From an uncultured bacterium (lineage in GTDB: Bacteria; Bacillota_I; Bacilli_A; RF39; UBA660): a DNA stretch of 57,671 nucleotides. Under the pieces are notes generated by a model that was not told the origin of the DNA, searched no databases, and saw only the letters and a program-made list of their open reading frames with translations. How positions within the stretch are numbered: position 1 is the first letter of the stretch; each line of letters opens with the position of its first letter. This document shows positions 25,124-48,911 of this stretch, one piece after another. Both the position numbers and the translations under genes were made by a program. Location: assembly GCA_949284575.1 (NCBI GenBank), contig CASDWO010000026.1, positions 1 to 57,671 on the forward strand, in the 5' to 3' direction.

Positions 25124-25197
25124 TGGCAGGGGCGGAGAGAATCGAACTCCCATCAAAAGTTTTGGAGACTCCTATGCTACCATTATACCACGCCCCT
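25124..25197 (-). tRNA. trnW: tRNA-Trp (anticodon CCA)
   Basis: The reverse complement reads AGGGGCGTGGTATAATGGTAGCATAGGAGTCTCCAAAACTTTTGATGGGAGTTCGATTCTCTCCGCCCCTGCCA. It shows a 7-bp acceptor stem, a GTTCGATTC T-loop, anticodon loop CT-CCA-AA and an encoded CCA end. Terminator hairpin gactcttatgccaagagtc (25091-25109) lies downstream. Confidence 0.93.
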
Positions 25198-43949: not shown

Positions 43950-45167
43950 TTGTTGGAGGTGATGATCTTGAATAAGAATAAAATTCTTATAATAGCTGCT
44001 ATTTTTTTAATTATTATCTTAATTATTGCTTTAATTATTTATTTTAATACAAGAATAGTTGTTGATAATAGTGGCTTTACTTTAAAAGATGATCTTTCTG
44101 TTAATGTATATAGTGATGTATCTGTTAATGACTTTATTAAAAATATGGATGGTAAGATTGTTGATAATAATAAAATTAATACTAATAAGTTAGGTAAAGT
44201 AGAAGTAGAATTTATTTATTTAAATAGTGATGAAAGAAAGAGAAAAGGTACTTTTGAGGTTGAAGTTAAGGATTTGGAAGAGCCTTTAATATGGCTTGCT
44301 AATAGTTATAGTGTTAGAGTAGGAGAAGATGTAAATTTAGAAGATGAAATACTCTGTGCTGATAATTATGATAGTAATCCTAGCTGTAAAATTAAAGGAG
44401 ACTATGATTTAAATACTGCTGGAAACTATTCACTTGTTTATGAAGCAGAAGATAGTAGTGGTAATAAAGAAAGTATTAATTTTACTTTAAATGTTTATGA
44501 ACCTAAAGTTAATTCTGGTGGTTCTAATAATGAAGTTGTCTATACTGATTTTAAAGAAATACTAGATAAACATAAGAGTGATAATACTCTAGTTGGTATT
44601 GATGTTTCTAAGTGGCAAGGAGATATTGATTTTGCTAAAGTAAAAGAAGCAGGAGCAGAGTTTGTTATTATTAGAGTAGGTCATCAAAATGGTGTAGGAG
44701 GAGAATATGTACTTGACCCTTATTTTGAAGCAAATATTAAAAATGCTTTAGAAAATAATTTGGAGGTAGGTATTTACTTTTATTCTTATGCTGATAGTAA
44801 GAAAGAAGCTAGGAAACAGGCTAAGTGGGTTATTAAGCAAATAAATGATTATGATGTTTCTTTACCTGTTGCTTTTGATTTTGAGTCATTTACATCATTT
44901 AATAGTATGAATCTTAGTTTATTTGGTTTAAATGAAGTAGCTGAGTCTTATTTTTCTACTTTAGAAGATAAAGGCTATGATACCATGCTTTATGGTAGTA
45001 AGAATTATTTAAATGCTATTTGGAAATATAATAAAAATAAAGTATGGCTTGCTCATTATACAGATGAGACTGATTATTCTAAAGATTATATGATGTGGCA
45101 GTTATGTCAAGATGGGATTATTGATGGAATTAATGGTTTTGTTGATATAGATATTTTATATAAATAA
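43950..45167 (+). CDS. GH25 muramidase (lysozyme) with an N-terminal TM and an Ig-like domain
   Basis: GIDVSKWQGDIDFAKVKEAGAEFVIIRVG and ...YFYSYA..., then the WQLC... GH25 pattern. A DUF5011-like Ig segment precedes it. The start is ambiguous (43950-43968). Confidence 0.85.
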   Translation: MLEVMILNKNKILIIAAIFLIIILIIALIIYFNTRIVVDNSGFTLKDDLSVNVYSDVSVNDFIKNMDGKIVDNNKINTNKLGKVEVEFIYLNSDERKRKGTFEVEVKDLEEPLIWLANSYSVRVGEDVNLEDEILCADNYDSNPSCKIKGDYDLNTAGNYSLVYEAEDSSGNKESINFTLNVYEPKVNSGGSNNEVVYTDFKEILDKHKSDNTLVGIDVSKWQGDIDFAKVKEAGAEFVIIRVGHQNGVGGEYVLDPYFEANIKNALENNLEVGIYFYSYADSKKEARKQAKWVIKQINDYDVSLPVAFDFESFTSFNSMNLSLFGLNEVAESYFSTLEDKGYDTMLYGSKNYLNAIWKYNKNKVWLAHYTDETDYSKDYMMWQLCQDGIIDGINGFVDIDILYK

Positions 45168-45176
45168 TGGTATAAT
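45168..45176 (+). promoter_or_regulatory. extended -10 promoter element (TGgTATAAT) just upstream of the intron-like RNA
   Basis: TG at 45168-69 and TATAAT at 45171-76. No good -35 at 17 nt. Confidence 0.45.
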
Positions 45177-45192
45177 ATGACAAAAAAAGTGG

Positions 45193-45826
45193 GTGCGCCA
45201 GTTCGGTGTTTAATATATAGTCGGGTGGGAAACCGACATGGTAAGACCTAGCAAGTCGCCATTAGTTAGCCTTGGAGTCGAAGTCGTGAGATTAGATTTA
45301 AGCGTAGGTAAACGAGAATACGAGCCGTAATACGAAAGTGTGAAGCGATTCAGCCTCGTTAAATATAAATAGTGGTAGTCGATGTGTTCCACTTCACAGC
45401 AGACAATAACGGCGATATCGATAAGCGAGATATCGTGAGAGTGCCACCGGGGTCAATAGAGCATGGCGAGTATATCATTGATATATTAAGCATACCTGGG
45501 AGAACTTATAAATTCCTAATTCTAAACGGTTTAAAACACCAATAGTAACAGGTATGCCGAAGCAAGGTTTTGTAAACTAAGTAAGGCAAATGATTTATAA
45601 GTAGTCGGACTAGTTCATAGTAGCAAAGAAGGAAGTAATGACTCTGGAGCGAAGGGACTAGCATATAAGTCGATTTATATATGAAACAATGCTAATGTGC
45701 TAGATGCATTAAGCCAATGCAAAATGAATATATGAAATAACTTGAGTAGCAAATGGCTTATATGAAGAGCCGTATGCGAGAAAACCGCACGTACGGTTCT
45801 GTGAGGGGCGACAGACTTCCTCTCAC
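45193..45826 (+). ncRNA. ORF-less group II intron-like RNA (about 634 nt)
   Basis: 5' GTGCG. Domain V is gagccgtatgcgagaaaaccgcacgtacggttc (45767-45799). A domain VI-position hairpin gtgagggg/cctctcac lies at 45801-45826. EBS1 CCACTT (45389-94) is complementary to AAGTGG (45187-92). No RT/maturase ORF. G+C is clearly above the flanks. The 3' end is approximate. Confidence 0.85.
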
Positions 45827-45876
45827 TAAAGAAAGAAAGAGAGGTGGGGTCGAGTCGTCTACTCGACTGAAGAATA

Positions 45877-47426
45877 ATGCAAGTATTAGATGATAAGCTT
45901 AATAAAGAGTTTATATTTGATCTTTATAGTAAAATTAATTTAGATTTTAAAGAATATGATAAGATTACAAGAAAGCAAATGTTATTATTTATCAATAATT
46001 TTTATAGTGATTATCATAATATAATTGATATTTGTACAGTAAGAGAACTTAAGCTTTTAAAAAGACTTGCTAGTGGTGAAGAGATTAATCATAGCGATGA
46101 AAAATATGATTTTGAGATATCTACTTTAATAAATAAGATGTTAATTGGTTATGATTTTAGTGATGGCTATTTATAGCAGATGAATTTAAAGATAATATTT
46201 TGTTAGCTTTATCTAAAGTTAATATGAAAAATGCTAAAAAACTAGATGAACTTAATGAATTTTTAGTTGGTTTTTGTAAGGTTAATGGTAATGTACTTGT
46301 AGAGACACTTATAAGTATAGCTTTGCAATTATTTGATCATAGTGAAGAGGAACTTAGAGAACATATTGTTAATAATAAATTGTTTAGATACTATGTTATG
46401 CTTGATTATAAATATATAGAATCTTTAGATAGTAAAATGATTGTAGCAATGTATAGTGATTATTATTATGTGATGGATAGATTAGATGAAAATAGGAAAA
46501 AATATGCTTTACTTTCTAACTCAAATTTTGATTTAGATATGTATAAGAATATATTTTATAATAATTTTGATACTAGTAATAAAATAGTTTCTAAATTTCT
46601 TAGAGAAATTAAAGCTTTACCTTTCTTTTGGAATAGAACTTTAGAAGAATTTAGAATTTGTGCTTTATTAAATGAAGGAAGAGAAGAGTTAAAAGAATCA
46701 ATTAGTAATGTACCTATTTTAAAGATGGAACATATAGATTTGACTAATTTTTTTGATTTAATGGATAAAGCTCTTGATGATATGCCTTCAGGTGCTTTAA
46801 ATGGAATGACTCCTAATCAATATTATAAGAAATCTAAAGAAACAATAGAGCATGATATAAAAAAAGAAAAAGAATATGTAAAACAAACTAATGCTCATTT
46901 AAATGAAAAGGATGCTAAGAAATTTTATGATCTATACTTTTCTTTGTTAGAATATGTGAATAATAAATATCATATTAATACTAGTCTTAAAAAAATATAT
47001 AAACAACATTTTTTAGATCCTAATACTTTAGTACCTGTTATAGAATATCTTTTTAGTGATAAAGAAAATATTATAGATTCCTATATAATAGAAAATCCTC
47101 ATAAATTTACTAAAGATGATTTAAATGTAATTAAGAAATTTAAAGATGGTATTAGAGAAACAGTTGTGATTGCAAAGTTTGAAGAAGAATATACTGGTGT
47201 TGTTAGTGATTATAAAGTATATATGATTAAAGGAGTTAATTCTAATATTGATGAGATTATTTCTTATAAACAATTACCTTATTTAGTTATTATGACGCTT
47301 TTACCGTTTAAAGATGTAATTATCTATGATGGTATTATGACAGGTATTCCAGTTGGTTTAGGTGTTAATTTTGCTAAGATGGTAGAAAATGATTATAATA
47401 AAAATATGAAATATTATCATTTATAA
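45877..47426 (+). pseudogene. unknown-function gene split by a -1 frameshift near 46164-46176 (99-aa plus 408-aa ORFs)
   Basis: ORF1 ends ...GYDFSDGYL* at 46176. The second frame is already open from 46164 (WLFIADEFKDNILLALSKV...), so the two read as one ~510-aa protein if 1 nt is removed or a -1 shift occurs. There is no slippery heptamer. Confidence 0.5.
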
Positions 47427-47531
47427 GAAAGAGATTATTTTAAAATAGTCTTTTTTTTCGTAATTTATTAAGAAAATAGATTTGTATAAAGTTGTAAGAG
47501 AGTGATATACTAGATTAAGAAAGGATGATTT

Positions 47532-48911
47532 ATGTTGAAAGAGAATATTTGGAAGAAGTATGATGCAGTAGAAGTTTCTAAAGTTTTTGAAATGGGTGAT
47601 GATTATAAGAAGTTTTTAACTGTTTCTAAAACAGAAAGAGAAGCAAATAGAGAAATTATAAGGCGTGCAAAGGAGAAAGGTTTCCACAATATTGTGGATT
47701 ATATAAAAGAAGGAAAGAGATTAAAACCTGGTGATAAAATTTATGCTGATAATAGAGGAAAAGCCGTTGCTTTATTTGTTATTGGAAAAGATTCTATTAC
47801 TAATGGTATGAATATATTAGGAGCTCATATTGATTCACCTAGACTTGATTTAAAAGCTAATCCTTTATATGAAGATACTGATTTTGCATATTTTGATACA
47901 CATTATTATGGTGGTATTAAGAAATATCAATGGACTACTATTCCGTTAGCTTTGCATGGAGTCATTGTAAAAAAAGATGGTACAAAGATAGATGTTAATA
48001 TAGGAGAAAAAGAAGATGATCCTGTATTTTGTATAACAGATTTACTTCCTCATTTAGCTAGTGAACAAATGAAAAAGACATCTGATAAATTAATTGAAGG
48101 AGAAGCTTTAGATGTATTAATAGCTAATATGCCTTTAAAAGGTGAAGATAAGAATGAGGTTAAAGCTAATGTACTTTCTTTATTAAAAGAAAAATATGAT
48201 ATAACAGAAGAGGATTTTTTATCTAGTGAAATAGAAGTAGTACCTGCAGGAAGAGCTCGTGATATGGGCTTAGATAGAAGTATGGTTTTAGCATATGGAC
48301 AGGATGATAGAAGTTGTGCTTATTCTTCTCTTATGGCTATATTAGATTCTAAAGGGTCTGATAAGACAGTGAGCTGTATTTTAGTTGATAAAGAGGAAAT
48401 AGGTAGTGTGGGATCTACTGGTATGTGTTCTACTTTTTATGAAAATACTGTAGCAGAGATTTGTCAGTTATTAGGTGAAGATAGTTTTGTAGCGGTAAGA
48501 AGAGTTTTTGCTAATTCTAAGATGTTATCTAGTGATGTTAATGCGGGATATGATCCTATGTATGCTAGTGTTATGGATAAACGAAATGCTTCATATTTAG
48601 CTCGGGGATTAGTATTTTGTAAATATACAGGTTCTCGTGGTAAAAGTGGAAGTAATGATGCTGATGCTGAGTTTATTGCAGAACTTAGAAATATCTTGGA
48701 TAGTGATAATGTTAGTTATCAAGTGTCAGAGTTAGGCAAAGTTGATATTGGTGGTGGAGGTACAATTGCTTATATTCTTGCTAATTTAGATGTAAAAGTA
48801 ATTGATGCAGGTGTAGCAGTCTTAAATATGCATGCTCCATATGAAGTAACTAGTAAGGTTGATATTTATGAAGCTTATTTAGGATATTTATCTTTTTTAA
48901 ATAAAGCATAG
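47532..48911 (+). CDS. M18-family aminopeptidase
   Basis: 459 aa. GAHIDSPRLDLK, the acidic DKEEIGS pair and the C-terminal NMHAPYE motif match M18 aminopeptidase 1-type enzymes. Confidence 0.8.
   Translation: MLKENIWKKYDAVEVSKVFEMGDDYKKFLTVSKTEREANREIIRRAKEKGFHNIVDYIKEGKRLKPGDKIYADNRGKAVALFVIGKDSITNGMNILGAHIDSPRLDLKANPLYEDTDFAYFDTHYYGGIKKYQWTTIPLALHGVIVKKDGTKIDVNIGEKEDDPVFCITDLLPHLASEQMKKTSDKLIEGEALDVLIANMPLKGEDKNEVKANVLSLLKEKYDITEEDFLSSEIEVVPAGRARDMGLDRSMVLAYGQDDRSCAYSSLMAILDSKGSDKTVSCILVDKEEIGSVGSTGMCSTFYENTVAEICQLLGEDSFVAVRRVFANSKMLSSDVNAGYDPMYASVMDKRNASYLARGLVFCKYTGSRGKSGSNDADAEFIAELRNILDSDNVSYQVSELGKVDIGGGGTIAYILANLDVKVIDAGVAVLNMHAPYEVTSKVDIYEAYLGYLSFLNKA

Follow-up and report, generated by a model that had tools for sequence, protein, structure and literature searches.

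In the current study, we characterized the element at positions 45193-45867 of a 57,671-nt stretch of DNA from an uncultured bacterium of the RF39 lineage (contig CASDWO010000026.1). The whole stretch is called the window here, and coordinates are window positions on the forward strand. At this locus, a gene for a GH25 muramidase is followed by a promoter-like sequence, the element itself and a gene that in its intact form encodes a 516-amino-acid protein, for which searches of Pfam and NCBIfam returned no family match. An earlier note, made from the sequence alone, had described the element as an intron-derived ribozyme of about 634 nt that lacks an open reading frame (ORF), is transcribed from its own promoter in the leader of an unknown gene, and may share the architecture of the HYER ribozymes. 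We find that the element is a real group II intron of the self-splicing type whose reverse transcriptase (RT) gene was recently lost, rather than a free ribozyme of a new kind. The features of the intron and its insertion site are collected in Table 1.

Identity, boundaries and empty site of the intron

Searching both halves of the element with Rfam covariance models, a check that the earlier note had itself proposed, gave matches above the gathering score in each case. RF02005 (group-II-D1D4-6) matched 45228-45463 over the full model (1-225) with 111.1 bits and an E-value of 1e-30 (gathering score 49), and RF00029 (Intron_gpII, domains V and VI) matched 45765-45867 with 55.5 bits (gathering score 40). 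These were the sole intron matches in the 57.7-kb window, also when the search was rerun with permissive filters. No ORF longer than 60 amino acids is present inside the element, and tblastn searches with eight RTs of the same intron family gave nothing significant against the window or against the intron; the best match (E 0.05) lay inside the GH25 gene and was rejected as spurious. The element is therefore a genuine group II intron, and its description as ORF-less is upheld by the Rfam matches and by the lack of an RT ORF in both element and window. Gene predictors have called a 46-amino-acid ORF at 45753-45893 in public assemblies, running through domains V and VI into the 3′ exon; it is spurious and represents no gene.

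The GTGCG at 45193, which had been noticed to fit the GUGYG consensus, was confirmed as the 5′ boundary. The 3′ boundary lies at 45867, with the terminal AC at 45866-45867, which makes the intron 675 nt long rather than the ~634 nt, ending at 45826, of the first description. Relatives of the same subgroup all end in ...GUCUACUCGAC, beyond which their sequences are unrelated, and in one of them (L079) a second intron copy begins directly after this motif. The position in the 5′ leader of the downstream gene was borne out, and the spacing is even closer than supposed: the start codon at 45877 follows the intron by 9 nt instead of 50 nt.

An intron-less version of the locus was found in a sister species, where the syntenic contigs L007 and L008 carry the genes for a DUF1848 protein, the GH25 muramidase, the 516-amino-acid protein and an M18 aminopeptidase. 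The L007 homologue of the 516-amino-acid protein (P0002) is ~70% identical to that of the window. The GH25 stop codon and the ATG are only 32 nt apart in L007 and L008, and joining the window exons at 45192^45868 gives a sequence colinear with the L007 interval, apart from one 2-nt indel. The window junction, GG|UGAAG, coincides with the Shine-Dalgarno (SD) sequence of L007, GGUGGAG. The intron lies inside the SD sequence of its host gene, at a distance of 16 nt from an extended -10 upstream and of 9 nt from the ATG downstream. The same extended -10 is found in the same place in L007, as GGTATAAT. Since it is present at the empty site, the extended -10 at 45168-45176, which overlaps the last part of the GH25 gene, is the promoter-like element of the host gene and not the intron's own; the TGgTATAAT reported in the earlier note is indeed there, but its ownership was misjudged. 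No terminator-like site was found on the + strand within 44000-47600. A fusion protein read from an ATG in the 5′ exon (45177) through 45192^45868 into the host ORF was also considered and rejected, as it is out of frame and meets an early stop.

Searches for further copies of the element gave no match in a phage collection, and an exact domain IV 30-mer had no match in the JGI metagenomes. In plasmids, distant relatives alone were found, namely an ORF-less copy on Clostridium perfringens pJIR4150 and an RT-bearing copy in C. tagluense.

Table 1. Features of the intron and its insertion site (EBS1 and IBS1, exon- and intron-binding site 1; IEP, intron-encoded protein; MFE, minimum free energy).
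Feature	Position	Strand	Evidence and remarks
Host-gene promoter-like element, outside intron	45148-45176	+	Consensus scan; TAGATA (-35-like) 45148-45153, 17-nt spacing, extended -10 TGgTATAAT 45168-45176
IBS1 (AAGTGG)	45187-45192	+	Last 6 bases of 5′ exon, 5′ half of split SD sequence; 6/6 with EBS1; aligns with L007 SD GGTGGAG
Complete ORF-less group II intron, 675 nt	45193-45867	+	Rfam matches; exons joined 45192^45868 colinear with L007 empty site; 95% identity to L130 over positions 1-499 and 567-675
5′ boundary motif GUGCG	45193-45197	+	Sequence; same motif at same distance from domain I pattern in 85 relatives among the matches listed
Domain I	45198-45499	+	RNAalifold consensus; closing helix 45198-45201 / 45496-45499
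EBS1 (CCACUU)	45389-45394	+	Terminal loop of hairpin 45378-45404; EBS1 position in Rfam model and family consensus
Domain II	45500-45606	+	Family consensus fold
Domain III	45610-45661	+	Family consensus fold
Domain IV remnant, RT ORF deleted	45662-45764	+	Basal helix CAUAUAAG (45662-45669) / CUUAUAUG (45757-45764), read from sequence
Decayed IEP start stub, ATG..TAA, MQNEYMK*	45717-45740	+	DNA alignment to L130, whose protein starts MTNERKDIS...
Domain V	45767-45799	+	Rfam, family alignment; AGC triad, 2-nt AC bulge; A45779 x C45785 mismatch at loop-closing pair, also in L130
Domain VI, long helix	45802-45865	+	MFE fold, Rfam alignment, family alignment
Bulged branch-point adenosine, 7th base from 3′ splice site	45861	+	Unpaired in MFE fold; invariant in 14 relatives; branch position of Rfam model
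3′ exon start UGAAGAAUA	45868-45876	+	First bases complete SD (GUGG|UGA) after exon joining
Host gene, 516 amino acids when intact, here split into 99- and 408-amino-acid ORFs by a 1-nt deletion	45877-47426	+	ORFs, orthologues

Ribozyme structure, exon pairing and branch point

The secondary structure of domains I-VI was recovered from a family consensus and from an alignment of domains V and VI. For domains I-III, the RNAalifold consensus of 11 subgroup members comprises 114 pairs, and compensatory changes are seen at 68 of these. The window intron keeps 103 of the 114 pairs and the ORF-bearing members 105-113; six of the 11 pairs missing from the window belong to a single misaligned hairpin (45410-45439) that has a perfect 7-bp stem of its own. 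As modeled by this consensus, the ribozyme is structurally as intact as those of the ORF-bearing members.

Pairing of CCACTT (45389-45394) with AAGTGG (45187-45192), in the manner of EBS1 and IBS1, had been proposed in the earlier note, and it is complete in the window. Since the chance of a given hexamer occurring somewhere in 675 nt is ~15%, the pairing was tested across the family. Among 69 distinct members, the contiguous pairing of an intron with its own 5′ exon averages 4.9 bp, vs. 3.4 bp for mismatched combinations, and the covariation extends to non-purine exons, as in GCGCTTA with UAAGCG and ACGGTG with CACCGU. The assignment is thus borne out by the six pairs of the window, by the location of the hexamer in the loop of the EBS1 hairpin and by the covariation in the family.

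Domain V had been recognized correctly from its AGC triad and bulged helix, as confirmed by Rfam and by the family alignment, in which it pairs as in 13 relatives. The same cannot be said of domain VI, which the earlier note had equated with an 8-bp hairpin at 45801-45826. This hairpin can form, but it is paired in 61.6% of the alignment cells of 14 relatives and shows no compensatory change; the domain VI of the family is the much longer helix listed in Table 1. The alignment of domains V and VI contains 24 pairs, with 99.4% of cells paired and seven pairs changed on both sides; none of 500 shuffles was as good, and shifting the 3′ partners by 1-3 columns lowers pairing to 31-42%. In the MFE fold of 45761-45880 (-44 kcal/mol, z -4.5), there is one bulged adenosine, A45861, followed by CUCG and then by AC. 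The claim that domain VI lacks a bulged adenosine is contradicted by this base, and the argument for hydrolytic chemistry, whose premise was the missing branch adenosine, is left without a basis. A 3′ extension of the B.c.I4 type, in which the splice site lies ~53-56 nt past a normal domain VI, was likewise rejected: the additional 41 nt belong to the long domain VI, as its 3′ strand, and the branch adenosine is 7 nt from the end.

The distal helix of domain VI (45819-45846) is formed between a pyrimidine run (CCUCUC/CCUUUC) and a run of purines that is conserved and resembles an SD sequence (GAGAGG/GAAAGGAG). The pyrimidine run has a second possible partner in roughly half of the relatives, the 5′ strand of domain VI, and this pairing gives the 45801-45826 hairpin. 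A conformational toggle of domain VI is therefore conceivable, although it lacks the support of covariation.

An RT-encoding sister intron and the affinities of the lineage

A close relative of the window intron, L130, lies on another metagenome contig and was found through the spurious 46-amino-acid ORF over domains V and VI, for which a single homologue was retrieved. L130:702-2602 is a full-length intron of 1901 nt, identical to the window intron at 95.0% over positions 1-499 (472/497) and at 95.4% over positions 567-675 (104/109). Its domain IV contains an intact ORF of 420 amino acids that scores 382 bits with the NCBIfam RT/maturase equivalog TIGR04416 (cut-off 300); the model covers residues 28-390 of this IEP, and no endonuclease domain was detected. 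Window positions 45652-45754 align locally with L130 1161-1258, which include the ribosome-binding site and first codons of the ORF, with indels and an early stop. The resulting stub of the ORF was revealed only by DNA alignment to L130 and was missed by tblastn. Given the 95% identity of the ribozymes, the intact RT ORF of L130 and the stub, the window intron is, to judge from these alignments, a recent internal-deletion derivative of an autonomous RT-encoding intron. The special status implied by the earlier note is thereby lost, as an RT ORF in domain IV of a close relative and its disrupted stub in the window are the marks of an ordinary decayed intron, the outcome that the note itself had listed as a refutation.

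The differences between the two introns are informative as to constraint. The basal helix of domain IV, CAUAUAG/CUAUAUG in L130, has gained one base on each strand in the window and remains paired. Among 30 substitutions, a small sample, 23 affect bases that the model, which omits part of domain II, leaves unpaired, against an expectation of about half; two of the 30 fall in EBS1 (CCAC vs. CCTT). The preference for unpaired positions, together with the paired indel in domain IV, suggests that the ribozyme structure has stayed under constraint.

The L130 intron itself resides in the leader of a dUTPase-like gene, beside a divergent HTH repressor-like gene, in a prophage-like setting. Its EBS1 (CCUUUU) pairs at four of six positions with its own 5′ exon (AGUUGG), which suggests that this copy is an ectopic insertion.

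With regard to class, the domain V loop of the family has 5 nt (GAAAA/UAAUA) and is closed by 4 bp, the closing pair being A x C in the window lineage. A 5-nt loop is a peculiarity of classes IIE and IIF, together with small size, and long domain VI stems have been described for IIF (Nagy et al., 2013, PMC3753933). Comparison of the L130 RT with proteins of solved structure was not decisive, as LtrA (IIA, 173 bits), the E. rectale IIC protein (166), TeI4h (144) and GsI-IIC (138) score within ~35 bits of each other; the scores are similar for L067. Taken together, the 5-nt loop, these scores and the absence of a terminator hairpin in the 5′ flank point away from class IIC. The AGC triad and the long domain VI, like the loop, point toward IIE and IIF. 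The window lineage shares with IIE and IIF introns a small ribozyme of IIB-like type (450-700 nt when the ORF is not counted), the use of EBS1-IBS1 as the key contact with the 5′ exon, an IEP of ~420 amino acids without a detected endonuclease domain and, with IIF, a long structured domain VI. It is likened to them by features and not by phylogeny, and differs in its position, as no promoter or SD niche is described for them in the papers covered.

Two further ORF-less introns invite comparison. In Trichodesmium erythraeum, where dnaN introns are served by the RT of the RIR intron (PMC12584367; PMC4424553), the full ribozyme is kept and the domain IV ORF is lost, as in the window. Derivatives of this type also have a near-identical ORF-bearing copy elsewhere (here L130, at 95%) and splicing-dependent expression of the host gene, as would be predicted for the window. 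Unlike them, the window intron lies in a 5′ leader, inside an SD sequence, and not in a coding sequence, and L130 is not tied to the same genome. C.te.I1 of Clostridium tetani (PMC3919590; PMC4024640) resembles the window intron in being ORF-less, in residing in a low-GC, Firmicute-like genome and in lying just past the stop codon of a cell wall-related gene. However, it belongs to class B and has a CGC triad, extra downstream copies of domains V and VI and a shifted 5′ splice site, whereas the window intron has an AGC triad, one domain V/VI and a canonical 5′ splice site. Alternative splicing of the C.te.I1 type was rejected on the triad and on the single domain V/VI match in 57 kb.

Proposed splicing at a divided Shine-Dalgarno sequence and a possible niche of the family

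We propose, with a probability of about 0.8, that the element is non-autonomous and arose by deletion from a mobile intron with an RT gene, of a compact, endonuclease-less and IIB-like lineage, and that it is inserted in the SD sequence of its host gene. The intron would have entered the leader of the 516-amino-acid gene by reverse splicing, guided by the pairing of EBS1 CCACUU with AAGUGG. Transcription from the host promoter would start ~7 nt past the -10, near 45183, leaving a 5′ exon of ~10 nt that includes IBS1. The RNA would then fold into domains I-VI, A45861 would attack the 5′ splice site (45192|45193), and the exons would be ligated at 45192^45868 to give ...AAAAAGUGG|UGAAGAAUAAUG, with ...AAAAAGTGG|TGAAGAATAATG as the predicted junction sequence. 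Joined in this way, the exons would rebuild an SD-like GUGGUGA located 6 nt from the AUG and complementary to the usual 3′ end of Firmicute 16S rRNA (the window contains no 16S gene). In unspliced RNA, the first half of the SD would stand 675 nt from the AUG, which is preceded by the base of domain VI and not by an SD; translation of the host gene should therefore depend on splicing, and splicing probably restores the ribosome-binding site, as read from the arrangement of the sequence. A splicing-dependent effect on the downstream gene, already envisaged in the earlier note, is plausible in this light, since the intron separates the SD core from the ATG. Splicing could either be independent of protein or receive help in trans from a maturase encoded by a full-length sister such as L130. 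Compact IIE and IIF introns self-splice without protein in vitro (PMC3753933), and bacterial genomes with ORF-less introns usually also house an ORF-bearing relative (PMC4424553).

Several points weigh against this proposal. No RT or maturase is encoded in the 57-kb window, and L130 is not tied to the genome of the window. At the empty site the SD reads GAGGUGG, which is stronger than the rebuilt GUGGUGA, and splicing and the transcription start are deduced rather than observed. Furthermore, the host gene carries a frameshift, present in the window as well as in four further assemblies (L001-L004), which fits a gene that is no longer expressed: within 46160-46200, the window reads GGCTATTTATAGCAG where L009 reads GGCTATTTATTAGCAG, a 1-nt deletion that turns TTATTAGC into TTATAGC and creates an in-frame TAG. 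This deletion, recurring in independent assemblies, and the missing RT are also what speaks for the main rival explanation, namely that splicing was lost with the maturase and that the intron is a dead relic that cuts the SD from the ATG and silences a gene now in decay; that many bacterial group II introns need their own maturase (PMC11754743) agrees with it. We nevertheless regard it as unlikely, as the ribozyme has kept the structure of the ORF-bearing members, substitutions relative to L130 avoid paired positions, the domain IV stem was preserved by a compensating indel, EBS1 fits its exon perfectly, and in L009 the intron is accompanied by an intact 516-amino-acid gene. The force of the structural points is tempered by the recency of the deletion (95% identity to L130), since little decay would be expected under either explanation.

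The split between SD and AUG, by which translation becomes formally dependent on splicing, could also be taken to mean that the intron has been domesticated as a riboregulator, a switch that gates translation of the 516-amino-acid gene according to temperature, Mg2+ or the amount of maturase. Modulation of host genes by group II introns has precedents (PMC3753933; PMC12584367). Yet the intron is absent from the orthologous site of the sister species, the gene to be gated is frameshifted in most assemblies, and mobile RT-bearing relatives take the same position between SD and ATG in unrelated genes, which indicates target choice by a retroelement and not a property of the gene; such a role is accordingly very improbable. 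Even harder to credit is a free ribozyme of the HYER type, which would be transcribed from its own promoter and, instead of behaving as an intron, would cleave DNA or RNA hydrolytically under sequence guidance. The HYERs (Liu et al., 2024) resemble the window element as ORF-less group II intron RNAs of ~0.6 kb with a 6-nt guide loop, and they are described as ORF-less, multi-copy members of class IIC with a 6-nt target recognition site, HYER1 measuring 637 nt (PMC11754743; PMC12990946). The ORF-less window element, of ~0.6-0.7 kb and with the six nucleotides of EBS1 as a guide, resembles that description in these respects; a promoter lies directly upstream, and ORF-less members of the same subgroup are multi-copy in some Synergistales assemblies. 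In contrast to the IIC assignment of the HYERs, however, the window lineage has the 5-nt domain V loop of IIE and IIF introns, no terminator hairpin upstream and, in L130, an RT no closer to IIC than to LtrA. A canonical branch adenosine is present in domain VI, the promoter pre-exists at the empty site, the window holds a single copy, and the position makes sense only with splicing, which would restore the ribosome-binding site. The HYER-like architecture suggested in the earlier note thus receives no positive support in a comparison made with the HYERs by description only.

The preferred reading, a mobile intron that has lost its ORF, places the element among a known kind and in a position that is unusual but typical of its family. 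We searched one genome per species with a degenerate domain I pattern and recovered at least 120 loci (L010-L129). The counts given below hold among the matches listed, which come mostly from Clostridia, Lachnospiraceae, Synergistales, Anaeroplasma and similar lineages; most carry an ORF (~1750 nt from the domain I pattern to domain V) and few are ORF-less. The 5′ part of domain I separates two subgroups, long-form and short-form, the window intron being short-form. A -10-like hexamer was scored when it started 12-32 nt before the 5′ splice site, with equal-sized windows further upstream as controls. In the long-form subgroup, such a hexamer was present at 45 of 54 distinct loci, as a perfect TATAAT at 31 and with a TG extension at 30, compared with 9-17 hexamers and 0-2 TG extensions in the controls; the spacer between -10 and intron was 9-10 nt at 37 loci, and an SD and an ORF followed at a median of 64 nt past the 3′ end. 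Short-form introns had the hexamer at 19 of 31 loci (12 TG-extended; controls 7-8 and 0-2), with a spacer of 10-20 nt. Their 5′ exon mostly ends in an SD core (AGGAG|, AGGUG| or GGAGG|), and where both ends could be placed, the start codon of an ORF lies at most 10 nt (mostly 6-10) past the 3′ splice site in 12 of 13 cases. The EBS1 of short-form introns reads as an anti-SD sequence (CUCCUU, CCUCUU, CACCUA). Examples of SD sequences divided in this way are L013, L030, L033, L040, L066, L067, L070, L083, L119, L121, L130 and the window locus itself (45187-45879). The upstream flanks are otherwise unrelated.

These regularities lead us to suggest, tentatively and as something short of an even bet, that a widespread endonuclease-less lineage, found mainly in Clostridia and allied taxa, colonizes promoter-proximal leaders, the long-form 9-10 nt after the -10, and the short-form, with its anti-SD-like EBS1 (CUCCUU, CACCUA and the CCACUU of the window, among others), in SD sequences 10-20 nt after the -10 and 6-10 nt before the start codon. 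The -10 might be sensed by the IEP or through the single-stranded DNA of the open complex, or the pattern might reflect mere selection for expression. Other group II introns also favor one kind of landmark and not one sequence, IIC introns inserting at terminators and IIB1 introns at start or stop codons. The landmark of the window lineage would differ from these in being the stretch from the -10 to the start codon, and for the short-form the SD itself. The introduction of a 2025 paper names only terminators and start or stop codons as specialized niches. We found no description of a -10/SD niche in the literature searched; key older papers were not covered, and no priority is claimed.

At this locus, then, a candidate for a new ribozyme class gives way to a well-understood object, a mobile intron with a recently deleted ORF, whose exact boundaries, branch point and empty site are defined and which has a living parent copy. 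Its remaining interest is that it cuts a ribosome-binding site in two just after a promoter, and that relatives do likewise in unrelated genes. If the niche is real, it would be a new way for bacterial retroelements to choose safe and well-expressed sites: the element would obtain immediate transcription, ribosomes would be kept off the ribozyme, and translation of the host gene would depend on splicing. Such loci would also be cases from nature in which RNA self-splicing gates the initiation of translation, and might supply ribozyme scaffolds that are compact, need no protein and carry a programmable 6-nt guide.

Some other features of the family were observed in passing. Two Synergistales genomes (L015, L033, L034, L055, L057, L079, L083) contain several copies with near-identical 5′ ends, among them an ORF-less form of 679 nt (L033), an ORF-bearing form (L083) and a head-to-tail tandem (L079), which recalls the multi-copy spread reported for HYERs. 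The copy on C. perfringens pJIR4150 (L005:3400-4050) is an unannotated ORF-less long-form intron between conjugal-transfer and yafY-family genes, 9 nt after a TATAAT, and its EBS1 loop pairs poorly with the adjacent exon. In long-form introns such as L022, L047, L048 and L114, use of the adjacent -10 would leave a 5′ exon of ~3-4 nt in the RNA, shorter than the IBS1 of 5-6 bp in the DNA. Conservation at the 3′ end of the long-form stops at ...CUACUAGAG, with AG as the apparent end. Elsewhere in the window, and unrelated to the intron, a tRNA gene was detected at 25127-25197 on the - strand (Rfam tRNA, 54.3 bits).

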